A DNA stretch of 64,000 nucleotides from a virus. A program made the translations under genes and the position numbers. Every line of letters begins with the position of its first letter. Positions within the stretch are counted from its first letter, which is position 1. Location: IMG/VR virus record IMGVR_UViG_2919367315_000001, positions 46-64,045 of that record. The stretch is one strand, 5' to 3'. The notes under the pieces are model-generated. The model saw only the letters and a list, made by a program, of their open reading frames with translations, did not search any database and had not been told where the DNA came from. Shown here piece after piece: positions 1-22,333 of the stretch.

Positions 1-177
1 GGTATTTTAAGTAAACGAAATCCCACTTGGGGATGGCGTGCAAACGAAGCCTGGAAGATCAAAGGTGACTCAGAACCAAGTGATGCTTACATTGATGACA
101 TGAAATTTAGAGGCTCTGTATCGATTCTCTTTGGGTTCTTCTTTTTAACATGTGGACTTTTGGTTATATTCCTGTAA
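1..177 (+). CDS. 3' end of a host membrane protein (DUF6199-like), partial
   Basis: Frame 1 reads GILSKRNPTWGWRANEAWKIKGDSEPSDAY...GLLVIFL* (TAA 175-177); resembles the DUF6199 C-terminus. Confidence 0.55.
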   Translation, partial: GILSKRNPTWGWRANEAWKIKGDSEPSDAYIDDMKFRGSVSILFGFFFLTCGLLVIFL

Positions 178-205
178 GTTCTACTATCTGTTTTCAATCC
201 TCAAA

Positions 206-391
206 TTACCCACATCCATAAGGCACTTGCTGTTTGGCGGCGACTCCCAAAATGTCACTGCTCACGTTTTCAAAAACAGAAATCTGTCTCTCATCCATAG
301 CTTCCAGCAAACGAACTTCCTTAATCTTCAAAGACCGACTGCCGCTGTAGTAAGTAGTAAAAATCATTTTTCTCGCATAGTATTTACTCAT
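206..391 (-). pseudogene. Relic fragment homologous to the C-terminus of the prophage HNH protein at 59315-59998
   Basis: GSRSLKIKEVRLLEAMDERQISVF aligns with AGRSLKTKEIRLLESMDTKQMSVF; both loci contain ccgctgtagtaagta. Confidence 0.7.
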
Positions 392-556
392 CTAACCAGC
401 CACCTATAAGGAAGAACAATGTAGAAACTCGACTCGTCACTTTGGAGTGTGAGTAGCTTAGAAGAGCCAGTATACCCGAGTGTAATGACTTCATTTTCTA
501 AGACTTTCAAGGCATCCAACACATATTTGCATTCAACGTTAGTTTGAAATTTTTTC

Positions 557-646
557 ACAGCCGACGTTTATGCACACATCTACAAAAAAATAGAGATGAA
601 TAGCATGGAGAAATATGAGTCTTTTACCGGGAGTCTTCTTCAATAA
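557..646 (+). pseudogene. C-terminal relic of a tyrosine integrase
   Basis: Reads TADVYAHIYKKIEMNSMEKYESFTGSLLQ*; T-x-D-V-Y-A-H is the catalytic-Tyr motif of phage integrases; no intact upstream frame. Confidence 0.7.
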
Positions 647-712
647 TATTTTTTTATGGGGAGATTGTGGGGAGAACTAATTAGTCTCAAATGACGGATG
701 GATTACACACAC

Positions 713-751
713 AAAAAAAAATCCCTCAACGCTTAGAGCGCCAAGGGATTT
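713..751 (-). terminator. Rho-independent terminator after the glnA 3' fragment
   Basis: aaatccct...agggattt stem followed on the minus strand by a U-tract (A-run 713-720). Confidence 0.7.
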
Positions 752-757
752 CCCATT

Positions 758-811
758 TTAGTAAAGAGTTAGATATTGATCACGTTCCCATTGATGCACT
801 TGGGTGCGATA
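758..811 (-). other. glnA: Prophage attachment site: duplicated 3' end of the glutamine synthetase gene
   Basis: Minus strand encodes YRTQVHQWERDQYLTLY*, the typical GlnA type I C-terminus, with no gene body upstream. Confidence 0.85.
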
Positions 812-954
812 TAAGTTTTATGGATCTTTAAATTATCATATAGTACTTTAATAGCGATAAAGCACTTATAACGGATATTTATATTTTCTAAAGAGTCATA
901 TGATATTTTAAGTTTGGGGGCAATTCGGGGGCGGTGTTGGGGGCAGTTACATAG

Positions 955-991
955 AAGGCTTGAAACGTAGCTACATTACGTTTCAAGCCTT
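955..991. repeat. 15-bp perfect inverted repeat near att
   Basis: aaggcttgaaacgta - 7 nt - tacgtttcaagcctt; next to G-rich tracts at 914-944. Confidence 0.8.
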
Positions 992-1462
992 TTAATCTAA
1001 TCGCTAATAGTGAAAACATGTATCGTCGAGGGAGTAAATACCTCAACGTCAACTGGCATCTTTACACAATGAGCTATAACTATTGATTTTATAAATAATC
1101 TTATGTTGTCTTTCTCTAAATCCCAAGGCAGTGTAACTTTATGTTTAGCCATTTTATTAATGCACTCCTTATGTGTTTGTCTTTACTGCCGACAAAATAT
1201 CATGTATACTCGCTGTGAATCATTATCAGTGGGACCCATTTGGCTATCCTGGCAGGGATGCCAACCCACATTTAAACGTCTCTCTTTGGGAGGCGTTTTT
1301 ATCACGTCCTTCCATAATTTTGTTGTCCCTTATAAGCTGAATATTAACATGGCGTAATCGAAAACAATGTCGTTTTGTGTCGGAATTTTCTGAGCTATAC
1401 TAGGGTCAATTTTTCTTGACTTATGGATGACCATATGTTAAAAGCCCGACCAAAGGCCGAGC

Positions 1463-2179
1463 TTAATTGTTTGCGAGATATTCTTTTAACATTCTAAACT
1501 TTGACTGGGATACCGGACAAGTGTAGTCTGATTCTTTAAATTTAATCACGGCGCCAAAACTGTTTTCATTAAATCCGGCCACCTTATTTAAATTTATAAA
1601 ATGACTTGGCGTAGCAGGAAAGAGATATGGAAATGCTTCCTTGCAGTCCCTAAATGTCAGAACTACCTCACCATAGCTATTTTTGAAATGAAAACGAGGT
1701 ACATGATAATTTCGTTTTGGAGAACACAAATCAACGAAACAGATATCTTTAGCCGGATAAAGGCTAGGTTGCAAATTAATAGTTCCTAAAATAAAACGTG
1801 AGTCATTTGGACGTTTCTTAGCAGCTTGTATTGTATCAGGCAAGAGTGCTGAATTAAGCTTATTAACGCTAGTGTAGATGTCTGTTTCACCAAAATAAAC
1901 CTTCCCGCCATAACTCCCTATTTCTACTTTGGAAACATTTTTTAGATTAACCAAATTTCCTGTATCCAAAGAAAAAAAATCGGGAAATCCATTTGTGAAT
2001 TCCCCTAGAGTTGTGGGAGTTGTATGGTTGCCGTTTGTAGTTATAAAGAACGGTATTTCATAATTGGCTTTCGGTTTCCACTTTTCTATAGCTATAAGAT
2101 CACTTTCAAAAAATGAAAACCTGTCTCCCATTTGTCCATTCGCCGTAATCATAGGTGCAAAAATCTCTCTGTTGTACAT
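1463..2179 (-). CDS. Tandem-LytTR-domain DNA-binding protein without a receiver domain
   Basis: Two LytTR-like repeats (FFSLDTGNLVNLKNV; LFPATPSHFINLNKV); last gene of the agr-like operon. Confidence 0.75.
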   Translation of the reverse strand: MYNREIFAPMITANGQMGDRFSFFESDLIAIEKWKPKANYEIPFFITTNGNHTTPTTLGEFTNGFPDFFSLDTGNLVNLKNVSKVEIGSYGGKVYFGETDIYTSVNKLNSALLPDTIQAAKKRPNDSRFILGTINLQPSLYPAKDICFVDLCSPKRNYHVPRFHFKNSYGEVVLTFRDCKEAFPYLFPATPSHFINLNKVAGFNENSFGAVIKFKESDYTCPVSQSKFRMLKEYLANN

Positions 2180-2189
2180 AGCAGTTCAA

Positions 2190-2309
2190 TCATTTCTTTA
2201 GTTCTTTTGGGGTTGGCATTGCCCCGATTATTGTCTTCTCTTTTTTGGATGCTTTTTCAGCATCTTTTGTTAAACGGTTCGCTACAAAACGTGCAATCTT
2301 TTTTTTCAT
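2190..2309 (-). CDS. agrD: AgrD-like autoinducer precursor peptide, 39 aa (not in ORF track)
   Basis: MKKKIARFVANRLTKDAEKASKKEKTIIGAMPTPKELKK*; RBS gaggtga; directly after agrB; ends in AgrD-like P-x-P-K-E-L. Confidence 0.75.
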   Translation of the reverse strand: MKKKIARFVANRLTKDAEKASKKEKTIIGAMPTPKELKK

Positions 2310-2311
2310 TC

Positions 2312-2827
2312 TTACTCACCTCCCTTCTGTGGTAAAAGCAGAATGGCCTGAGCAGAGAAAGAAAGAGCAACAACAGGGGATTGGATTATAAAATTTGTTA
2401 GTACAATTGCTATGGAAATCCATTTTAAATACGGATCTAATTCCGAAGGATTAAGGTCCACAGACTTGCGAGGGGCCACGCAAAGGACGATTGCTGCTGT
2501 TATAGTCGTAAGCAACATCACGCCATCATGGCTTAATTGTATCAAGGGTATACTCGCAAATAGTGCAGCAGAAAATATAGCACAAACTGTTAAAGACTTA
2601 AAATGCAGCCCCCCGGAGAACTTTCTAAGAACTACAAAAGAGAAAAAGGCTAAAAGGGCATTTAAAACATCACCAAGTATCCATCCAAACAGGATCGTTA
2701 GAATTAACCCCGAATACCAATTAAGCTTAATGCCTATTGCGTAGGTTAATACCTCTACACTTCCGGGTCCGTCTGGATCAGCTTTTTTTATTGCGGTTGC
2801 GATGCGCTTCGAGAGCTTTTCTAGCAT
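2312..2827 (-). CDS. agrB: Accessory gene regulator B family peptidase
   Basis: LRKFSGGLH motif with Cys at His+7 (HFKSLTVC), as in AgrB catalytic His/Cys; multiple TM helices; likely start MLEKLSKR at 2827. Confidence 0.9.
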   Translation of the reverse strand: MLEKLSKRIATAIKKADPDGPGSVEVLTYAIGIKLNWYSGLILTILFGWILGDVLNALLAFFSFVVLRKFSGGLHFKSLTVCAIFSAALFASIPLIQLSHDGVMLLTTITAAIVLCVAPRKSVDLNPSELDPYLKWISIAIVLTNFIIQSPVVALSFSAQAILLLPQKGGE

Positions 2828-3491
2828 CTTCTTGATCCTCCTTCCGCGACAGAAAGTAAGAGATGCCAAAAGTGCTTGCCGACATAAGCAACAAAACAAA
2901 CGGATTGAGTTGGTATAAAAGCACCTCCGCTACGCAAATGGTAACGGCAGATAAGAGCGCACTAACTGCCACTGATCTATTGTCTTTTGAAAAATAACTC
3001 TCGCGTCTATTATCGTGGGGGGGCGCAACGATGAACGAAAATCCAGCATTATAAATTTTGAGAATAAACGATACAGCAAAACAAAGCGTTATGTATGTCA
3101 CTTGTAGGATATAGACCTGTAAAGTTGTGTTTTGCTGTAAAACTCCAGTCTGCATAATTCCTAAAAAGTTATAAAGGTAATAAACACCGACCTGTATTAT
3201 CGCATATGCACTAATCCCAGCCCCTAGTATAAACGCTGATAAATGTGTTTTAATCCCCAGTCCATAGCGAAAAAACAATATAAAAAGTATATATTGCAGA
3301 GGTAAATCTAGCTTAGGAAGATTAAAAATCACCCTCATAAAAAAAGAAATTATAGCTATCAATATCCCAAAACCAATAAGTCTTTTCCGGCGCTCAGCTA
3401 CTGGCAACATATATAATTTTAAGGAAAATACTATAACCGCAATAGTATCAAAGATACCAATACCAATATATGATAAAATATCTAACACCAT
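2778..3491 (-). CDS. ~7-TM membrane protein resembling an AgrC sensor domain, no kinase domain
   Basis: 237 aa, almost all hydrophobic helices; no H-box or GHKL motifs; first gene of the operon. Confidence 0.65.
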   Translation of the reverse strand: MVLDILSYIGIGIFDTIAVIVFSLKLYMLPVAERRKRLIGFGILIAIISFFMRVIFNLPKLDLPLQYILFILFFRYGLGIKTHLSAFILGAGISAYAIIQVGVYYLYNFLGIMQTGVLQQNTTLQVYILQVTYITLCFAVSFILKIYNAGFSFIVAPPHDNRRESYFSKDNRSVAVSALLSAVTICVAEVLLYQLNPFVLLLMSASTFGISYFLSRKEDQEDARKALEAHRNRNKKS

Positions 3492-3519
3492 ACACCACCC
3501 TACTGATTAATATATTCTT

Positions 3520-3547
3520 ATTATAAGACGGTGTATGGTATAAGCAA
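3520..3547 (-). promoter_or_regulatory. Putative sigma-A promoter of the agr-like operon
   Basis: Minus strand TTGCTT - 16 nt - TATAAT, ~30 bp upstream of the start codon. Confidence 0.5.
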
Positions 3548-3629
3548 GAGATTTTACAAATTTACGGATATTATGTCCACCAGCTTAATCCAACTGAAAC
3601 CATCTCGTTGAAACTCACTCTTTACATGT

Positions 3630-3890
3630 TTATTGCTCTAAAATCCATTGTTCTAAGAACGCCCTTGTTTCACGGGCTGGAAAATACCACTTACCTCCTA
3701 TCTTCCTTTTAATAAACCTAGGATCATAAAAAAATGCCCCCATTATTGTATTCCAACTCATACAAGTTCTCTTCTTTAACTCTTTCGTATCCCAAAATAC
3801 ATATTCAGCATCTACCACTTTTACAAGCTCTACTATTTTCTCTTGAATAAGCTTCTTTGCTTCAATCTCATCTACGCTAATTTTAATCAT
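3630..3890 (-). CDS. Small excisionase-like winged-helix protein ('group-specific protein')
   Basis: WDTKELKKRTCMSWNTI...RKIGGKWYFP pattern of MerR/Xis-like HTH. Confidence 0.55.
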   Translation of the reverse strand: MIKISVDEIEAKKLIQEKIVELVKVVDAEYVFWDTKELKKRTCMSWNTIMGAFFYDPRFIKRKIGGKWYFPARETRAFLEQWILEQ

Positions 3891-4034
3891 ATTCTTTTGT
3901 CCCTTTCAAAGTTATTAATCCTTAAACCCCTTCAATAGCTCTTTATTTGCCTACGAAGAAATACAATTTCCTATTATACCCAAATAACAATATATAAAGC
4001 CAGATTATATATCTGGCTAAAGTTGAAATATGAA

Positions 4035-4874
4035 TTATTTTTTCTTTGTTTTTTTCTGTTTTTTTTCACTTATAATTTCAATGAATTCGATTTTGCTTTT
4101 ATCCACTAAATATTCTCGAATTTCATTTTTTTCTTCATCTTCTATCATAAAATGAATAGTATTTTTCGAAGTCGTATTTTTTATACTAACATTGCTAAAA
4201 ACTTCTCCAGATAACTTCACATTTATTTTATGATTTTGTGCATAAAATTTTCCGAGCATTTTGAAGGCTGGTTGTAAGTAAAGTCGTACTGATAGATACA
4301 TTATTGTTGCCATCACTATAAATGCATAAAAAAATGGAGGGCTACTCTTATAGATTTTTAGAGAAAAATCAGGTAGATTTATTGAATAAAGATGAAAAGT
4401 TTCGCTCACTTTAAAGGCCATAGTTTTTATAGAAAATGTTAAAAATATAAAGATTAATACCAAGTGTAATAATGATAGGAGAAACTGATAATATTTTATT
4501 TTATCTGGTATTCCGGTAGTGAACTTAAAAATTTTAAATATTTTAATGAAATATTTATTTATTGTTAGTTGAATTTTTGAAGTGGGGAATTCCAGTTGCG
4601 TTAAAATCATAATAGTAGTAAAAAGAAAAATAAAATAAAGATACCATAATGAATATTCTCTAACCCCGCCACGGCTTACTACTACGAAGAAGATGACCAA
4701 GGCATATATGCCGATCTCCTTAAATAATATTCTTATGGTTCTAAAAATATTAGTTTCAAATTGTTTTTCAAGAGGTGAAGATCTAAAAAAAGCTATTACA
4801 TACATAGACAATACAATAAAGGTTATGATTTTATACGCGCCTAAAAAAGGGGCAGATATTTTCAGTAGTTCCAA
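4035..4874 (-). CDS. Multi-pass membrane protein, unknown function
   Basis: 279-aa AT-rich ORF with ~5-6 hydrophobic helices. Confidence 0.7.
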   Translation of the reverse strand: MELLKISAPFLGAYKIITFIVLSMYVIAFFRSSPLEKQFETNIFRTIRILFKEIGIYALVIFFVVVSRGGVREYSLWYLYFIFLFTTIMILTQLEFPTSKIQLTINKYFIKIFKIFKFTTGIPDKIKYYQFLLSLLHLVLIFIFLTFSIKTMAFKVSETFHLYSINLPDFSLKIYKSSPPFFYAFIVMATIMYLSVRLYLQPAFKMLGKFYAQNHKINVKLSGEVFSNVSIKNTTSKNTIHFMIEDEEKNEIREYLVDKSKIEFIEIISEKKQKKTKKK

Positions 4875-4898
4875 TTCACTCTCTCCAGTTCAAAAAAG

Positions 4899-5966
4899 TT
4901 ATCTCTCACAAGCTACTCCATCTCCATCACGATCCAGTTTCCTACTGTAACCTGGTTCACCTTCGTAAATTGGATCAGCGCCAGCAGCACGAACTGCAGA
5001 GCAGTTTTTATAATATACATTGCTTGATGATTCTCTTGGTTTTGAATAAAATTTAACTACTTCTTCTTTAGGAGTAGCAACTTTAGGATTAGACTCTTTC
5101 GCGTTAGAATCATTTTTTGGTGAATCAGCCTTAGTCGTTACCTTTCGAGTTGTCTTCTGATTGAATCCATCTTCTTGTGCATAGTTTTCAATACTCCAGA
5201 TACCTGTTCCACTTTTTTGAGCAGTGGCTTGAATCTCCTTGAATTGATCGACATATTTAACGTTTGGAGGATTTATGTAGGCCACCCGAGCATATCCTTT
5301 CTCGATCAACATTTCATTTAACATCTTATCTCCAACCCATACATATCCAAGTAGACGACCATACTTATCTCGTTCTGAAACATCAAGCTCTAGGGAAAGA
5401 TTACCTTGCTTTAATTGCTTCAATGTAAAAGCAGAAGCTTCTTTTGCAAACGGTTGAACTGGTGTACCCTGTTTAACGCTTTCTGGTGTATCTACTAGGA
5501 GTAATCGAATCTTTTCCTCTTTCCCCTGAACCGTTGCTTTAAATGTATCTCCATCTGTTCCAGCTATTAAGGTTATTGGAATACGCTTTGGTTGTTCAGG
5601 AGCTGTCTCTTCGTTAGATGCTGAGGTAGAAACAACTTTTGAAGTTTGCTCGGGTTTTGCTGTAGTAGGTACCACAGAAGTTTGTTCTACTTTAGCTGGG
5701 ACAGCTGGTGCTTTATTCGCTAAATCCTGCTGCTTAACATTAGACAGATTGCCGATGAACGCTAGAAAGAAAATTCCGGCAAGTGAAAATAAAACTATGG
5801 CTAATTTACTTTTTTGATTTGCTCTCTTAGCATTCTGATATTTTTTATATCCCCAGTAACCAAGCCCTCCTGCGATAATAAGCAATCCTAAATACTTAAT
5901 AATCGCCACAGCTATAATCACTGCAAAGATAATTCCTATGATCTTTCCCTTTCCATTACTTCTCAT
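4899..5966 (-). CDS. Membrane-anchored thermonuclease (SNase) with C-terminal Excalibur Ca-binding domain
   Basis: DGDTF...IRLLLVDTPE...DKYGRLLGYV SNase motifs; YYKNCSAVRAAG...YSRKLDRDGDGVACE Excalibur motif. Confidence 0.9.
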   Translation of the reverse strand: MRSNGKGKIIGIIFAVIIAVAIIKYLGLLIIAGGLGYWGYKKYQNAKRANQKSKLAIVLFSLAGIFFLAFIGNLSNVKQQDLANKAPAVPAKVEQTSVVPTTAKPEQTSKVVSTSASNEETAPEQPKRIPITLIAGTDGDTFKATVQGKEEKIRLLLVDTPESVKQGTPVQPFAKEASAFTLKQLKQGNLSLELDVSERDKYGRLLGYVWVGDKMLNEMLIEKGYARVAYINPPNVKYVDQFKEIQATAQKSGTGIWSIENYAQEDGFNQKTTRKVTTKADSPKNDSNAKESNPKVATPKEEVVKFYSKPRESSSNVYYKNCSAVRAAGADPIYEGEPGYSRKLDRDGDGVACER

Positions 5967-6078: not shown

Positions 6079-6414
6079 CTAAATACTTGCTGAAATGATA
6101 TCCTCCAACTTGATCCAACTATAATCATCTTCACCACGAAACAGTTTTACTTCCCTGCGAGCAGTATTTATAGACGTGATTACACCTGTGAGTTCTTCGT
6201 CATCGAACGGACTAAAAACCACTATCGATATAGGTTGACGTGTGTTGTAAGAGATTATGAGCACCTGCTCAATTAGCTGCACTTCTTGATCATCAAGTTC
6301 AGGTTTACCACGCCGTTGGCGATCTTTCATAAGCTTTAGGTATGCTTCCTTATGTTCAGGGATGATTATCCGACTGCTTTCCCATAATCCATTGCCCTCA
6401 AGTTTCTTTCCCAT
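6079..6414 (-). CDS. yolD: YolD-like protein
   Basis: GNGLWESSRIIIPEHKEAY...GKPELDDQEV typical of the YolD family. Confidence 0.85.
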   Translation of the reverse strand: MGKKLEGNGLWESSRIIIPEHKEAYLKLMKDRQRRGKPELDDQEVQLIEQVLIISYNTRQPISIVVFSPFDDEELTGVITSINTARREVKLFRGEDDYSWIKLEDIISASI

Positions 6415-13751: not shown

Positions 13752-14831
13752 TCACTTTATAAGCCTTATCCTCGGTTTTCCTACAGAATATATATTTTGA
13801 AACTCCGCTTCGGTTAGAGAAGTCACGTTACTTAAATCCTTGTATGAATAACTGAGATCAGATTGATGGATTTGCAAGATCTCTTCTAACATAGATGGCT
13901 TCTCAAAAGGAAGATCAAGTTCAATAGGTTCCCTCGTCCTATAGCCCGATTTTCCCATTTGAGTCCACAGGTATCTTGACTGTCTCTCAGTAATTTTATT
14001 TAAGTCCACAGCCCTTTTTAGCAAAGCATTCATTGATACTTTCCAGTATGGCTTTAAAGCAGCAAGTTTAGGAAGAGTAATGCCACCCAAAGAGTGAGAT
14101 ATCTCATTTTTAGGCATTAGAAATTCAGAAGAGAAACGGTCCGCTTGTTCTTCGATATCCACATCTTCACTTGGTGGTTTTCGATGCATAATAATATGTC
14201 CAAGTTCATGACATAATGTAAAACGGATTCGGTCCATAGTTCGATTAAAGTTTGTGAAAATGAGCGGAGGTACACCAGGATTCCATAAATGAATAGCATC
14301 TATATTAGCATCTTCAAAGTCGAAAGGAATAACTATTGCACCCGCATCTTCTAGAACATCAATTACATTTTGTATTGGCCCATTAGGAATTCTAAAAGTT
14401 GCACGAACTATTTGTGCTATTTTTTCGACATCACCATCATACTTTTCTGGGTCCATATGAAAGAACGTAGGCTCGTCTATATCAACTGATCTCAGCAAGG
14501 TTTGAATTTCCATTCTTCTTAATTCAAGCCGCGCATAAACAGTGTTTAATTGTCGTTGGGGAACCGCCTGTTTTTTTCTATGGAAAAATTCACTCAAACC
14601 AATTCCGTATATCTTCTCTTCTCTTTGAAAAAAATTATTCGGATAATTTAAAGCTTTTGAAATTTTATCTAACTCTTCTTGAGTTATTGAAATTAATCCA
14701 TTTTCGATTTTCGAAAGTTTCCCCTGTGTAAAGCCAATTTTTTTGGCCAATTCACTTTGGCTGATAGATCGTGATTCTCTCCCCAGCACAACTAATTGGC
14801 TATTATAATTCACGCTATTTGTTAATTGCAT
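13752..14831 (-). CDS. XRE-HTH plus ImmA/IrrE zinc metallopeptidase
   Basis: N-terminal HTH (RESRSISQSELAKKIGFTQGKLSKIE) and HExxH (RFTLCHELGH). Confidence 0.9.
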   Translation of the reverse strand: MQLTNSVNYNSQLVVLGRESRSISQSELAKKIGFTQGKLSKIENGLISITQEELDKISKALNYPNNFFQREEKIYGIGLSEFFHRKKQAVPQRQLNTVYARLELRRMEIQTLLRSVDIDEPTFFHMDPEKYDGDVEKIAQIVRATFRIPNGPIQNVIDVLEDAGAIVIPFDFEDANIDAIHLWNPGVPPLIFTNFNRTMDRIRFTLCHELGHIIMHRKPPSEDVDIEEQADRFSSEFLMPKNEISHSLGGITLPKLAALKPYWKVSMNALLKRAVDLNKITERQSRYLWTQMGKSGYRTREPIELDLPFEKPSMLEEILQIHQSDLSYSYKDLSNVTSLTEAEFQNIYSVGKPRIRLIK

Positions 14832-15444
14832 TTTTATCACCAGCACTAATAGATTTGTCTTTAACCCGAACTCTTGTTTTTCTTGTTGTAGTTTCTGAAG
14901 GTGTAGGTAGCGGGAAAAGGGCCGGCTCCGCAATAGGAGTTACCTCTTCATGTGTGATATCCCACTCCCAGATATTTATCTTTCCATATCTGTAAGTGAT
15001 ATAAATTCCATCAATATTTGATTGAAGGTTATTCAAAGTATAACCAACATGCAACAATCCATACGGAGGTAATCCTTCCAGTTCCAATTGTACAGTATCT
15101 TGAAGATCATAGGCCAATGCTTGCATTGTTGTTATTCCATTAGAAAGAAGCTTGTCGTTAAACTTTTTAAACCGTAGAGTTAAAAGTCCTTCAATTGAAA
15201 GCATGAATAAGCCTTTTCTCTCGTCAGTTCTTACTTTAGGCAATCCTTCAAACTTTAACTTGATTTCATCTTTAATATTATCATGACAAATTGAAGCTGC
15301 TGTTCTTTGCGAGTGCTTGTGCCTTGTCTGAGCATATTCCTCGCCTATGTAATAATCCTGTACACCTTTAAAAACAGCAGTTTTAATCAAATCAATATAT
15401 GGCTGCAACATTCTTATTGCGTCATCCTTCAATAGTGGCTCCAT
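14815..15444 (-). CDS. Hypothetical protein coupled to the HTH-peptidase gene (candidate toxin)
   Basis: LRFKKF...SNGITTMQA...LHVGY; stop overlaps the peptidase start. Confidence 0.65.
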   Translation of the reverse strand: MEPLLKDDAIRMLQPYIDLIKTAVFKGVQDYYIGEEYAQTRHKHSQRTAASICHDNIKDEIKLKFEGLPKVRTDERKGLFMLSIEGLLTLRFKKFNDKLLSNGITTMQALAYDLQDTVQLELEGLPPYGLLHVGYTLNNLQSNIDGIYITYRYGKINIWEWDITHEEVTPIAEPALFPLPTPSETTTRKTRVRVKDKSISAGDKNAINK

Positions 15445-16364: not shown

Positions 16365-16922
16365 TTATTCTGCCGTTACTGCGGCTTGAACAGCTTCTAC
16401 CGATGCTGAAATAGGCTCAGGTTCAGAATGCACCCGGGCAGGAACAACAAATGCTACCTCTGCTGTAGCCTGTGCCAAGAAATTATTAGGTTTTGCAGCA
16501 AGCCCCGATACAGCCTCCTTAGCAGCCGCTTGAGTAGCTTCTTCGTTCGGTTGTGATTCTGTAACGATTGCCTTCGTTTTGGAGTTATACTCTAAATATG
16601 CCTTTTCTATCGCGGATCGAATCTCTACAGCCGATACAGTAATGCCCTGTTCTGCTAAACGCAATGTAGTATACTGTAATGCTTCCTGAAGCTTACGCTC
16701 TCCCCCTGCTTGTTTGAACGCCGTTTGAGCAAAGGCAAAACCCTCTCCTGCTATCTTATGGATTACTTCCCTCTGTGCTGCCGTTGTACGTGCCTCCAAC
16801 CATAAATTTACTTTTACCTTGACTGTGTTCAATCCAGCCAAAACGAATGTCGTAAGTACGCCTACGGCTGCTGTAGCAATAGTAGTCACGTATGGTTGTA
16901 CACCTTCGATTAATGTTTGCAT
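16365..16922 (-). CDS. Phage holin, LL-H family
   Basis: Single N-terminal TM; GGERKLQEAL...IRSAIEKAY pattern; follows the endolysin. Confidence 0.7.
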   Translation of the reverse strand: MQTLIEGVQPYVTTIATAAVGVLTTFVLAGLNTVKVKVNLWLEARTTAAQREVIHKIAGEGFAFAQTAFKQAGGERKLQEALQYTTLRLAEQGITVSAVEIRSAIEKAYLEYNSKTKAIVTESQPNEEATQAAAKEAVSGLAAKPNNFLAQATAEVAFVVPARVHSEPEPISASVEAVQAAVTAE

Positions 16923-16924
16923 GA

Positions 16925-17920
16925 TTATTTATCCCCTTTCGTTTTCAGGCCAGCAATTTTATTTTTAGCATCCCATGAAATCTCAGCTCCGTATGATTCC
17001 GCAATGGGCCGCAATTGTACATAAGATGTTCCTTCAACCAATTTCACAGACTGCAATTTACGATTGTTCAGATATGCGACCTTTTTGGCATTATCCCAAC
17101 GTAAAGGGATGCCAAGAGCATCCGCCAGCACGCGCAACGGAACGTGAGTCTTTCCATCAAACAGCAGAGCTTTACCTACATTCTCTCCGTTAATCTGGAA
17201 TGATCCATCCTTAACAGTCGCGTCTTCCTCTTTGGGTACGGATGGCTTCTTGCTGAACCGCGTCCGAAGCTCATCTGCCGTGCCGTCAAATTCATTCAAA
17301 TCGACTGGACCCGCTATGCCAGCCACCTTATGCGTGCCGGACGGCAGTGTACCACCAGCTGAGCCATCGCTATACTGCCAGAAATCCCAGCGCGACCATC
17401 CAGACGCGCCAGGTGGAACTTGTGTGGAGCTGTACCGGGCGATCCACAGCGGGTAATCTGATAAGCCGCTGAAATTACCGATGAACGAAGGATATGTGTA
17501 CACGATTGGTCGTACTCCAGTAAGCCGCTCAACCTCCTGCAAAAAAGCTTTGGCTACGGATGTAAGCGCCGATTTGCTCAAGCCGGACTTGTTGGACTCA
17601 TAATCCATTACAGGCGGCAGATCAAAAGCCGCGATGCCTCCTGCTGAATCAATGGCGCTCACGAAGTTTGCAGCTTCCTTTCGGGCATCCTCTGGCGTTA
17701 TGGCAGAGTCGTCTACATAGTGATAAGCTCCAACCAGGACTCCTACAGCTCGCGCAGCCTGCGCATTACCGATGAATGTCTTGTCCCGGTATGACTTTCC
17801 TTGACTGGCCTTGATGAAGGCAAACGATATGCCGTCTTCCTTCACTGCCTTCCAATCAATCTTTCCCTGATATCGGGATACATCTATCCCTTGCGCGTTA
17901 CCTTTCTTTCTTGCCTGCAT
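16925..17920 (-). CDS. GH25 muramidase endolysin with C-terminal cell-wall-binding (copper-amine-oxidase-N-like) repeats
   Basis: GIDVSRYQG...FAFIKASQG...GAYHY...PPVMDYE...WDFWQYS...VDLN. Confidence 0.95.
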   Translation of the reverse strand: MQARKKGNAQGIDVSRYQGKIDWKAVKEDGISFAFIKASQGKSYRDKTFIGNAQAARAVGVLVGAYHYVDDSAITPEDARKEAANFVSAIDSAGGIAAFDLPPVMDYESNKSGLSKSALTSVAKAFLQEVERLTGVRPIVYTYPSFIGNFSGLSDYPLWIARYSSTQVPPGASGWSRWDFWQYSDGSAGGTLPSGTHKVAGIAGPVDLNEFDGTADELRTRFSKKPSVPKEEDATVKDGSFQINGENVGKALLFDGKTHVPLRVLADALGIPLRWDNAKKVAYLNNRKLQSVKLVEGTSYVQLRPIAESYGAEISWDAKNKIAGLKTKGDK

Positions 17921-18353
17921 TTTCTCCGTCCCCTTCCTTCTCTCCACTTTTACTTTTTAGAACCTCTACAGCCTGCCGGATAATTGATGGGACAGGCGCA
18001 CCAATCCTACCGCCATTTTCAACTATCGACAGCAATTCATTTGCCAGATAAAAATAGGCGACTGCATCCCGGAATAAATGAGAGTCACCCAGTACGCCGT
18101 CTACCAAATGCGCTACGGCAACCATCGCAAAAATGAAGACCTTACGGGCAATACCGATCATGCCTACCTTGCTTTTTAAACCGGGACCAGTTCCCCTTTT
18201 TCCTTCTGTTCCTGCTGCAATTAATCCAGTCACATAATCAATTATTGTAAATGTAAGAAGTGCAGCCAGAGCAAATGACCATCCTCCAAAAAGATACGTT
18301 ATCGCGCTTCCACCAAAGGCAGCGCTAAATTTATAAATCTCCGACTTGTCCAC
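17898..18353 (-). CDS. Phage holin (Cp-1/toxin-secretion family)
   Basis: DYVTGLIAA...GIARK...YLANELLSIVEN...G.PVP; GTG start at 18353. Confidence 0.9.
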   Translation of the reverse strand: MDKSEIYKFSAAFGGSAITYLFGGWSFALAALLTFTIIDYVTGLIAAGTEGKRGTGPGLKSKVGMIGIARKVFIFAMVAVAHLVDGVLGDSHLFRDAVAYFYLANELLSIVENGGRIGAPVPSIIRQAVEVLKSKSGEKEGDGENAGKKER

Positions 18354-20367: not shown

Positions 20368-21027
20368 CTAAGCTATTAACTTTTTACTTAACACTAATCT
20401 GTTAAAGTAATCAGAAAGAATTTTCTTTCTAACTTGAAAATCTTGTGTAGAGATAAGTAAACCTATATCAACTCTTTGAAGAGTTTCAATACTTTTTATT
20501 TGTTCTGCGGAAAGATAGGGTCTAATCGACTCTCCTGCCTTTACTCCTTTTTCTTCTCTAACTTGTTTTGCAGTAATTCCTAGAACAATCCGGTTAATCA
20601 TATCGATTTCATTTGTAAAGTGATAACTCTTAGGCACTTCATGTGAATCATTAATAGCACTAGTAAAGGCAGGAAATTCAAGCCGAGTAGCTTGAAGAGA
20701 TTTTATAAAGTATTCCATATCATTAAATCTTTGAATATAAGCTTCTTTGAATCTCGCTGCTTTCTTTCCTCTATATCCCATAATGAGAAATACGAAACCA
20801 TCTTTAGAGATTAGGTATTCCTTATAAGATCTACCTTTAGAATCTTTATATTTAATCGGCTCAAAATTGAGCCGATTAAATTGTTCGCTGCAATCAAGAC
20901 TTTCAATATCCCTCAAAACATTCTTATGTTCTTTTTCAAACTCTTCTGCAACTTGGCGACTAGTGCAATAAGCCCGTCCACTCTTCTCATAAAGATTGAA
21001 TTCAGTATTAAGAATTAATTTACTCAT
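20368..21027 (-). CDS. Rha family phage regulatory protein
   Basis: TSRQVAEEFEKEHKNVLRDIE...KDGFVFLIMGYRGKKAARFKEAYIQRFNDME. Confidence 0.9.
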   Translation of the reverse strand: MSKLILNTEFNLYEKSGRAYCTSRQVAEEFEKEHKNVLRDIESLDCSEQFNRLNFEPIKYKDSKGRSYKEYLISKDGFVFLIMGYRGKKAARFKEAYIQRFNDMEYFIKSLQATRLEFPAFTSAINDSHEVPKSYHFTNEIDMINRIVLGITAKQVREEKGVKAGESIRPYLSAEQIKSIETLQRVDIGLLISTQDFQVRKKILSDYFNRLVLSKKLIA

Positions 21028-21709: not shown

Positions 21710-22333
21710 ATGAATATTGGTGAAAAAGTAAAAGAACAACGTAAACTAATGGGTTTAACACAACCTCAATTGGCAGAAAAAATAGAAATGTCTATTGATT
21801 CAATAAAAAAGTTAGAAACAAATCGTATGAATCCAAGCATAGATACATTAAATAAATTAATTAAATTTTTCAAAGTAAAAGCTGATTACTTTCTAGATAA
21901 TTTAGAGAAAGAATCAGAAATAGTAGATAACAAAATGGTAAAGGTAGGAATCATACAAAAAGTAAATGCAGGCGAAGATGCTACATATGGTGAATTCAAA
22001 TCCTACGTTATGGTGGATTCTAAAATATTAGAGGGCAGACCTGCTATTGCCCTCAAATTAAAAGACAACTCTATGGATAAAGATAATTTATTTACTGGTG
22101 ATATCGTTGTAGCAAAACAAATGACTGAAACGGAAAAAATTAAAAGTACAGATATTTATCTCATACTAAGTAACGATGGTTTTTATGTGAGAAGGATAAA
22201 AAAGCATCGCAAATTCCTTATTCTTACTCCATCAAATCCAGATTATTCTGTAATTGAAATTAACAAAAACCCATACCTCAAAAATAAATATCATATATTC
22301 GGGAAAATTGTCCAAATAATAAGAAATATATGA
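21710..22333 (+). CDS. CI/LexA-like repressor (XRE HTH plus S24 peptidase-like domain)
   Basis: N-terminal HTH; LKLKDNSMD...GDIVV...RRIKK...LTPSNPDY. Confidence 0.85.
   Translation: MNIGEKVKEQRKLMGLTQPQLAEKIEMSIDSIKKLETNRMNPSIDTLNKLIKFFKVKADYFLDNLEKESEIVDNKMVKVGIIQKVNAGEDATYGEFKSYVMVDSKILEGRPAIALKLKDNSMDKDNLFTGDIVVAKQMTETEKIKSTDIYLILSNDGFYVRRIKKHRKFLILTPSNPDYSVIEINKNPYLKNKYHIFGKIVQIIRNI

Follow-up and report, generated by a model that had tools for sequence, protein, structure and literature searches.

A candidate phosphorelay-free agr variant with a sensor-like membrane protein and a tandem LytTR protein in a provirus of Paenibacillus affinity

The agr system is the textbook peptide quorum-sensing system of Gram-positive bacteria and, to our knowledge, every version of it that has been studied relays its signal by phosphorylation. 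How, then, might a peptide signal be read at a locus that pairs agr signal-making genes with a DNA-binding protein and holds neither kinase nor receiver domain? This question is raised by a four-gene cassette in a siphovirus-like provirus of IMG/VR (record IMGVR_UViG_2919367315_000001, 71.7 kb), of which bases 46-64045 were analysed; this stretch of 64,000 nucleotides is called the window, its coordinates are used throughout, and homologues of its proteins lie in the Paenibacillus polymyxa group. An earlier note on this DNA had described an operon of a seven-helix transmembrane (7TM) protein, an AgrB, an AgrD-like peptide and a tandem-LytTR protein, and all four genes were recovered as claimed. 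The cassette and the elements that bracket it are as follows.

3579-3551, minus strand: second candidate promoter, TGGACA-17-TAAAAT, from a promoter scan
3520..3547, minus strand: probable operon promoter, TTGCTT-16-TATAAT, conserved in the related loci L006 and L007 right after the yolD stop codon
2778..3491, minus strand: seven-helix membrane protein of 237 amino acids, candidate peptide receptor
2312..2827, minus strand: AgrB-type peptidase, 171 amino acids from the likely ATG start at 2827
2190..2309, minus strand: AgrD-like precursor of 39 amino acids, with no Cys and ending in KTIIGAMPTPKELKK
1463..2179, minus strand: receiver-less tandem-LytTR protein of 238 amino acids
1440..1462, minus strand: operon terminator, a G+C-rich hairpin and T-run directly 3' of the LytTR stop codon

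The four genes are tightly packed on the minus strand from 3491 to 1463 and are bracketed by a promoter and a terminator. The open reading frame (ORF) of the 7TM protein overlaps the AgrB start by 50 nt (the AgrB frame is open from a TTG at 2899, i.e. over 2899..2312), and 2 nt separate the AgrB stop from the peptide gene and 10 nt the peptide stop from the LytTR gene; judged by this overlap and spacing, the four genes form a single operon. Its terminator is kept in six loci with compensated changes. Six-frame searches of the whole 71.7-kb provirus gave no match to HATPase_c_5 (PF14501), HATPase_c (PF02518) or Response_reg (PF00072), so that the claimed absence of kinase and receiver domains holds well beyond the cassette itself. 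In a PADLOC scan, the cassette proteins had no defence-system match.

The signal-making pair is the more familiar half of the cassette. The AgrB protein matches PF04647 with an E-value of 2.5e-19 (69.8 bits against a cut-off of 23) and phrog_10353 with 1e-44, and the motif FSGGLH-x6-C is intact here and conserved in all relatives read, which bears out the intact His and Cys reported before; we take these two residues to be the counterparts of S. aureus H77 and C84. For the 39-residue peptide no NCBIfam match was obtained, the AgrD family included. The related loci fall into two subtypes, the phage type to which the window belongs (type I) and a more divergent type with a Ser-type AgrD (type II), and negative peptide positions give the distance to the Pro of the C-terminal P-x-E-L motif. 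The type I peptides share K-x3-G-x4-P in all 22 phage-type loci read, with an invariant Lys at -9 and an invariant Gly at -5, while position -10, the canonical ring position, varies (E, R, F, A). The three residues between Lys and Gly are likewise variable and mostly hydrophobic (triplets seen: TII, TLV, LIA, VFL, FGL, TWV, AVV, SIA, SFI, TVF, VIV, SIV, TIF, VFI and TLF), and the C-terminal PKEL of the window peptide retains the PxEL-type tail recognised by AgrB. In type II, position -10 is Ser and position -6 is hydrophobic, a spacing that matches a canonical AgrD with a lactone ring of five residues.

For type I, the invariant Lys suggests a different product. If the precursor is cut between -6 and -5, a K-x-x-x lactam would have a ring of 16 atoms (six from Lys C-alpha to N-zeta, one carbonyl carbon and nine backbone atoms), equal to the ring of the classical Cys-x4 thiolactone autoinducing peptide (AIP). 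Alternatively, the product could be a linear peptide whose Lys and C-terminal carboxylate pair with the Asp and Arg residues conserved in the pocket of the membrane protein described below. A lactone, a lactam and a linear peptide had all been proposed earlier, and the invariant Lys narrows that choice.

The question of how such a peptide could be sensed turns on the first gene. The 7TM protein has no Pfam or NCBIfam match, and a profile search of PDB sequences found nothing; it does match phrog_15604 at 7.6e-47. An AlphaFold2 model from a 63-sequence alignment has seven helices (pLDDT 94.4, pTM 0.90), and by the positive-inside rule the N-terminus is predicted to lie outside and the charged C-terminal tail (219-237) inside. 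In the ESM Atlas, this protein has its top non-self fold matches in two clusters of HATPase_c_5 (AgrC-type) kinases, which it matches over their N-terminal halves with TM-scores of 0.65 and 0.63 over approximately 200-212 residues, and all other families reach at most 0.41. Among AlphaFold DB clusters, its fold matches the N-terminal 220-236 residues of proteins named for GHKL and GGDEF domains; no protease is found among the fold matches, and one weaker match is auto-named ABC transporter permease. These models suggest that the 7TM protein corresponds to the sensor part of an AgrC-type protein and has no output domain, and such a fold fits the role of a receptor.

The conservation of the 7TM family was followed in the same way. 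A phmmer search of 1.8 billion representative proteins gave 101 clusters, with lengths of at most 291 and mostly 215-240 amino acids, and none of the 101 is fused to a kinase; a Pfam scan of 63 family members gave no match to DUF2154 or any other family. The conserved polar residues (D15, S49, R53, D62, Q66, Q100 and Q130) lie in the predicted outer halves of helices 1-5, variability across the family peaks in the outer loops, and the putative cytoplasmic loop between helices 5 and 6 (148-168) carries a conserved GFSFIxxPPH with a near-invariant G150 and PPH at 157-159. A search for related loci among viral contigs with the single 7TM protein found nothing. One further locus (L012, 4001-5390) has a distant 7TM family member followed by a second copy that is split into ORFs of 82 and 136 amino acids, and no AgrB gene.

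The last gene of the operon encodes the DNA-binding part. The protein matches PF04397 (E 4.2e-09) in two stretches, its two halves are homologous to each other (24% identity, E 4e-10), and its N-terminal half matches phrog_15081 at 1.1e-22; it is the sole LytTR match in the provirus and has 15 homologues in the P. polymyxa group. In published phage genomes its counterparts go by another name: Harrison gp41 (L001, 5294-5650) and Abouo gp47 (L002, 5312-5680) carry the annotation 'peptidase' or 'dipeptidyl aminopeptidase', and the label of phrog_15081 is 'peptidase' as well. Both proteins contain LytTR domains (29 bits against a cut-off of 22.6), and we correct the 'peptidase' label of these genomes and of phrog_15081 to LytTR.

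A candidate target for this protein lies directly downstream of its own gene, between the operon terminator and the prophage end, where the following elements were found.

1341..1420, minus strand: conserved cis-region and candidate LytTR-dependent promoter P_X, from an alignment of six loci
1420-1405, minus strand: motif GTCAAGAAAAATTGAC, directly after the operon terminator
1382-1368, minus strand: direct repeat CGACA-N5-CGACA, approximately 22 bp past the GTCAAGAAAAATTGAC motif
1349-1341, minus strand: extended -10 TGTTAATAT, 21 nt past the repeat and with no good -35
1182..1301, plus strand: small-RNA-like element antisense to the ORF X leader, with a TTTACT-17-TATACT promoter, two hairpins and a U-run; predicted RNA at about 1217-1301
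997..1152, minus strand: small ORF X of 51 amino acids, downstream of P_X and the last gene before the prophage end
716..754, minus strand: strong terminator (terminator scan, 18 pairs) closing the X transcript

The GTCAAGAAAAATTGAC motif, the CGACA repeat and the extended -10 are common to six loci of the P. polymyxa group, and the first motif also lies 3' of the LytTR gene in phages Harrison and Abouo and in locus L009, despite a protein identity of about 25-35%. The repeat has a one-mismatch copy in Harrison, was not found in Abouo, and has a looser copy, recognised by eye, in L011. Over 29 loci, the exact CGACA-N5-CGACA was found 81-132 nt past the LytTR stop in nine and with one mismatch in three more, and about 0.01 exact copies would be expected by chance in the 8.7 kb searched. 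The spacer sequence differs each time and the distance to the -10 stays constant at 21-22 nt; the window holds a single exact copy. An interpretation of the repeats as integrase arm sites was rejected because they travel with the cassette regardless of the type or position of the recombinase. From its conservation and placement, we regard the CGACA repeat as the best candidate for LytTR binding at P_X, which would be an activator-dependent promoter.

The small gene behind P_X varies. Homologues of ORF X were found in three loci (L006, L015 and L033), different small genes occupy the same position in others, and ORF X had no Pfam, PHROG or PADLOC match. The small-RNA-like element opposite its leader is conserved in six loci and occurs once in the window; its fold z-score is -4.2 in the window, and the scores span -4.1 to -5.6 in three loci. 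Rfam gave no match for window positions 1-4000, which include the element, and blastn with the element itself gave none either. In loci L014-L016, the central 21 bp of the element are exactly reverse-complemented relative to the window, L006 and L007, a 'hairpin flip' by which the stem is kept and the loop swapped.

How widespread is this arrangement? The four-gene synteny, which the earlier note had wanted followed across Paenibacillus prophages and whose lack it had named as a refutation, holds over protein identities between 98% and about 25%. The note is thus not refuted on this count, nor by the other condition of a kinase and receiver elsewhere in the prophage. The same order, often with yolD before it, occurs in prophages of P. 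polymyxa, P. peoriae, P. kribbensis and P. farraposensis (LytTR identity 48-98%), and the complete cassette is present in phages Harrison and Paisley of P. larvae and Abouo of Brevibacillus laterosporus. In the Brevibacillus phages Davies and Emery, a 7TM homologue was found by tblastn, and an AgrB/AgrD cassette is known from print (PMC3901668). In distant metagenomic prophages, the cassette lies between an integrase or serine recombinase and the CI/Cro switch. The idea that the cassette belongs to prophages alone did not stand, as the loci adjoining rsmD/coaD are chromosomal.

Within the genus, a census was performed over 41 genomes of Paenibacillus species. The 7TM family is present in 19 of them (42 matches) and AgrB in 21 (44 matches), with up to six copies of the layout per genome, and 41 of the 44 AgrB genes have a 7TM gene directly upstream; the three exceptions are high-scoring, full-length canonical AgrBs. 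P. farraposensis carries five cassettes, and its best HATPase_c_5 match reaches 43.9 bits, in an ORF of 563 amino acids. Type II loci usually continue with a LytTR-only gene of 124-143 amino acids (L033, L034, L035, L039, L052 and L054-L056); they have no CGACA repeat, and the two 7TM copies read (L029 and L030) have no PPH loop motif. Decaying copies were also seen, with stop codons in the LytTR gene in genome G036 and with insertion sequence (IS) insertions in L030 and L035.

We compared the cassette with the systems it most resembles, beginning with those phages. Abouo (gp44-47), Davies, Emery and Harrison/Paisley (gp38-41) have the same order of membrane protein, AgrB, peptide and LytTR-only protein. 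The Abouo/Harrison-type cassettes also match the same PHROGs (15604, 10353 and 15081), their peptides share K-x3-G-x4-P, and their LytTR gene is likewise followed by the GTCAAGAAAAAT(T/C)GA motif. They differ in protein identity (25-34%), in their LytTR protein, which has a single domain and 118-122 amino acids compared to the 238-residue tandem here, and in position: there the cassette adjoins the integrase, while here it lies at the opposite prophage end, where integration has placed it. Gene order and shared families place the window cassette with that of Abouo, Davies, Emery, Harrison and Paisley, which is uncharacterised; in the window copy, the LytTR is a tandem. Hargreaves et al. (2014) devoted one paragraph to the cassette of Abouo, Davies and Emery, in which the membrane proteins are said to be without HATPase_c and the LytTR gene was not recognised (PMC3901668). 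Other phage-genome papers list AgrB alone, in tables, and full-text literature searches found no description of the four-gene unit. The earlier statement that there is no characterised example can therefore be kept in so far as none has been characterised, with the qualification that the cassette was mentioned in print in 2014 without its LytTR gene (PMC3901668). Overall, the cassette is real, conserved and uncharacterised; new here are the AgrC-like fold of the modelled membrane protein, the genus census, the Lys/Gly rule with its ring size, the candidate site and promoter, and the antisense RNA-like element.

Similar to canonical agr (Staphylococcus agrBDCA and P. polymyxa agrABCD), the cassette has the AgrB His and Cys, a precursor with a C-terminal P-x-E-L tail, a LytTR output and, as predicted here, a membrane protein with an AgrC-sensor-like fold. 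However, canonical agr has a DHp/CA kinase module and a receiver domain, and the cassette has neither: where AgrA combines a receiver with a LytTR domain, the cassette protein matches LytTR twice and Response_reg not at all. Canonical loci run B-D-C-A and the cassette C'-B-D-A', and where a canonical AgrD has Cys or Ser five residues before the cleavage site, the cassette precursor has neither and carries its invariant Lys one residue later. The cassette is thus not a canonical agr, as it lacks the kinase, the receiver and the Cys/Ser nucleophile. P. polymyxa itself has a characterised agr that is canonical, with AgrC/AgrA and the Cys thiolactone Pp-AIP ICFGLF; this locus has been linked to paenibacillin (PMC13700820), and its agrBD alone produces the AIP in B. 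subtilis (PMC12180512).

The streptococcal LytTR regulatory systems HdrRM and BrsRM share with the cassette a receiver-less LytTR regulator that is encoded together with a membrane protein and without a kinase, and by this comparison a control of the regulator by contact with the membrane protein would be expected. They are two-gene operons of a regulator followed by a membrane inhibitor, HdrM has a DUF2154 domain, and they autoactivate through a pair of 9-bp repeats with a gap of 11-13 bp, placed 4-11 bp before the -35 of the operon itself (Zou et al. 2018, PMC6193735). In contrast, the cassette has four genes, its membrane protein comes first, is unrelated to their inhibitors and, with the LytTR gene, brackets a signal-synthesis pair, and its repeat lies downstream of the operon with none found at the operon promoter. 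On account of this layout, the unrelated membrane protein and the lack of autoregulatory repeats, the cassette is not a LytTR regulatory system of that kind. The agr3 locus of the Clostridioides difficile phage phiCDHM1 likewise sits in a temperate phage and has agrB and agrD homologues and a putative sensor; its AgrC has HATPase_c and no LytTR or response-regulator gene is present (PMC3901668), so it is the reverse of the cassette, which has no kinase and encodes its own DNA-binding output. Arbitrium (AimR-AimP-AimX of SPbeta-like phages) shares the logic of a phage peptide, a DNA-binding signal receiver, a small downstream gene or RNA and a place in the lysogeny region. AimR is, however, a cytoplasmic TPR receptor for an imported linear hexapeptide, while the cassette would use an AgrB-processed peptide and a presumed membrane sensor, and domain and PHROG scans found no TPR or AimR-like domain in the cassette proteins.

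The reading that we favour, with a confidence slightly better than even, is a phosphorelay-free agr variant in which AgrB matures the peptide, the 7TM protein senses it and a contact-controlled LytTR protein acts on P_X. AgrB would cut the precursor near the invariant Gly, and the acyl-enzyme would be resolved either by the invariant Lys, giving a small 16-membered lactam K-T-I-I, or by water, giving a linear peptide. The secreted peptide would bind in the outward polar pocket of the kinase-less 7TM protein, whose cytoplasmic GFSFIxxPPH loop and charged tail may hold or release the LytTR protein by direct contact, comparable to the streptococcal LytTR regulatory systems; this receptor-to-LytTR step is argued from that analogy. 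Once free, the tandem-LytTR protein would bind CGACA-N5-CGACA downstream of its own gene and activate the weak P_X, which would read through a leader opposed by the antisense small RNA into the small variable gene. The output may be a density-dependent input to prophage maintenance, induction or superinfection behaviour with an arbitrium-like logic, and one of these is probably concerned since the cassette sits beside the integrase and CI/Cro in related phages. Taken with all its specifics at once, namely a lysine-lactam AIP, a kinase-less receptor of AgrC type, direct sequestration and release of the LytTR protein and a private promoter for a lysis-lysogeny or superinfection gene, the scheme remains tentative, and we would sooner expect at least one of these parts to fail.

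Several results weigh against this reading. The fold link between the 7TM protein and AgrC sensor modules comes from predicted structures only; only generic helical bundles came back from PDB and Swiss-Prot with Foldseek and from PDB representatives with VIA-align (E at least 0.15, Z at most 7.5), and an hhalign comparison of the 7TM profile with one Paenibacillus AgrC-type kinase gave no sequence similarity. A structure model of the tandem-LytTR protein from a 14-sequence alignment was unusable (pLDDT 45). The CGACA repeat has 5-bp half-sites and a 10-bp period, compared to 21-22 bp in known LytTR sites (PMC6193735), and the operon promoter has no repeat of the downstream type, nor was a 21-bp-period repeat seen before the 7TM gene, and autoinduction is accordingly not apparent. 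A search of RNA runs gave four matches, all of them contigs of a related strain that had low depth and ended in transposase adaptors; they carry no information on expression. The distribution also fits an alternative explanation, possible in our view though doubtful, in which the 7TM protein is not a receptor and is instead the obligate partner of this AgrB subclass in signal making, through leader removal, export or scaffolding; the LytTR protein would then be controlled separately, and the peptide would be sensed by a host system or by the LytTR protein via another route. This would account for the 7TM gene that accompanies 41 of the 44 AgrB genes in the census, and for the overlap of the two ORFs, which in P. 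kribbensis are read as a single ORF of 379 amino acids (L029, 1450-2589, minus strand, at rsmD/coaD); the chromosomal type II locus by rsmD/coaD consists of 7TM, AgrB and Ser-type AgrD genes with no LytTR gene, and an unlinked AgrC/AgrA-like pair of P. kribbensis could serve as the sensor for a peptide of this kind. As the canonical agrBD pair alone suffices in B. subtilis (PMC12180512), the need for an extra 7TM gene would be specific to this subclass. However, the named multi-domain fold matches of the 7TM protein are signalling proteins that carry the module in the sensor position, with no protease among them. The fusion was found in one genome only, and in the orthologous loci L031 and L032 the two genes are separate, overlapping ORFs. 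P. farraposensis carries its five cassettes with no AgrC-type kinase, and the LytTR-only gene that follows the peptide gene in most loci would be left without a sensor.

Two further explanations were weighed. The cassette could be an interference device, the peptide jamming the agr receptors of the host or of rival phages and the LytTR protein competing with host LytTR regulators, comparable to the receiver-less BlpS-type proteins of streptococci. Receiver-less LytTR anti-activators are reported from the four-component system of S. gallolyticus, and some hosts carry AgrA/AgrC-like pairs or the canonical paenibacillin-linked agr (PMC13700820). We consider interference unlikely: even very distant members keep the private repeat and promoter beside the cassette, which argues for a dedicated target; the chemistry of the peptide differs from that of the Cys-type Pp-AIP ICFGLF; and hosts without an AgrC-type kinase hold several cassettes. 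A decayed and nonfunctional remnant of a canonical agr that has lost its kinase and receiver would explain why the domains that canonical agr needs are absent, and single copies are visibly decaying elsewhere (G036, L030 and L035). Such a history is very hard to reconcile with four intact ORFs here, 101 clusters of uniform length, catalytic and motif residues that are kept down to about 25% identity, and a layout that recurs, up to sixfold per genome, in 19 of 41 genomes, and we regard it as highly improbable.

The surroundings of the cassette agree with its description as prophage-borne, which is borne out by the integrase, CI/Cro, structural and lysis genes of the provirus. A tyrosine integrase gene with CI-like and Cro-like genes forms the right end of the record, the structural genes, including a tape measure of 1803 amino acids, lie on the minus strand, and the lysis genes are followed by approximately 16 kb of cargo, at the far end of which the cassette is found.

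16365-16922: holin
16925-17947: GH25 endolysin

The cassette is within the prophage, about 750 bp from its cargo-side end. Homology to prophages of other strains ends just past the 716-754 terminator, at about 713-715, and the divergence from the related locus L006 begins right after the T-run of that terminator; contigs of related strains differ over 627-713 (about 85 bp) and at 715. Since homology to other prophages breaks off there, the prophage junction is, by alignment, at about 713-715. A 44-bp repeat (584-627 and the 3' end of the integrase gene) was considered as an att site and rejected, as it is better read as an integrase-gene remnant; the 3' part of a second integrase gene (about 557-646) has approximately 90% identity over some 68 bp to the end of the resident one. 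In the circular phage genome the cassette would adjoin the integrase, as in phage Harrison. A megablast of the first 8 kb of the window against phages gave no match.

Other genes of the window were noted in passing. In related prophages yolD stands directly before the cassette; in the window, a DUF771-like gene, a membrane protein of 279 amino acids and an SNase-Excalibur nuclease (3630-5966) were apparently inserted between yolD (6079-6414) and the cassette, and the last 50 or so bases of yolD are duplicated directly upstream of the cassette promoter (3545-3600). The nuclease (4899-5966, minus strand) is a membrane-anchored SNase plus Excalibur protein of 355 amino acids that matches the PADLOC candidate family PDLC01096 (SNc+LTD) at 4.7e-26. 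A gene of the cargo region (13752-14933, minus strand) encodes a protein of 393 amino acids that joins an XRE-HTH part to an M78 peptidase domain of the IrrE/ImmA type. An S24 LexA-like repressor (21710-22333, plus strand) and a Rha regulator (20368-21027, minus strand) are encoded between the tail and lysis genes, distant from the CI/Cro switch at the integrase end.

The cassette represents a large family in which the enzymes that make an agr signal are coupled to a membrane protein resembling a sensor and to a DNA-binding domain, phosphorelay parts being absent, and in the sampled genomes this 7TM-linked family accounts for most AgrB genes of Paenibacillus. If the 7TM protein is indeed the receptor, the family would represent a new, one-step mode of transmembrane signalling, the first agr receptor to signal without phosphorylation, and LytTR systems of the streptococcal type, whose signals are unknown, would gain a relative whose ligand is evident. 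The Cys-less peptides with their invariant Lys predict a new autoinducer chemistry and, if the prediction is true, the first natural lactam AIP. The position in the lysogeny region makes the cassette a candidate for phage-phage communication outside the arbitrium family, in hosts that include biocontrol strains and bee pathogens; if so, it would be a second, mechanistically independent 'arbitrium' among the temperate phages of Paenibacillaceae.

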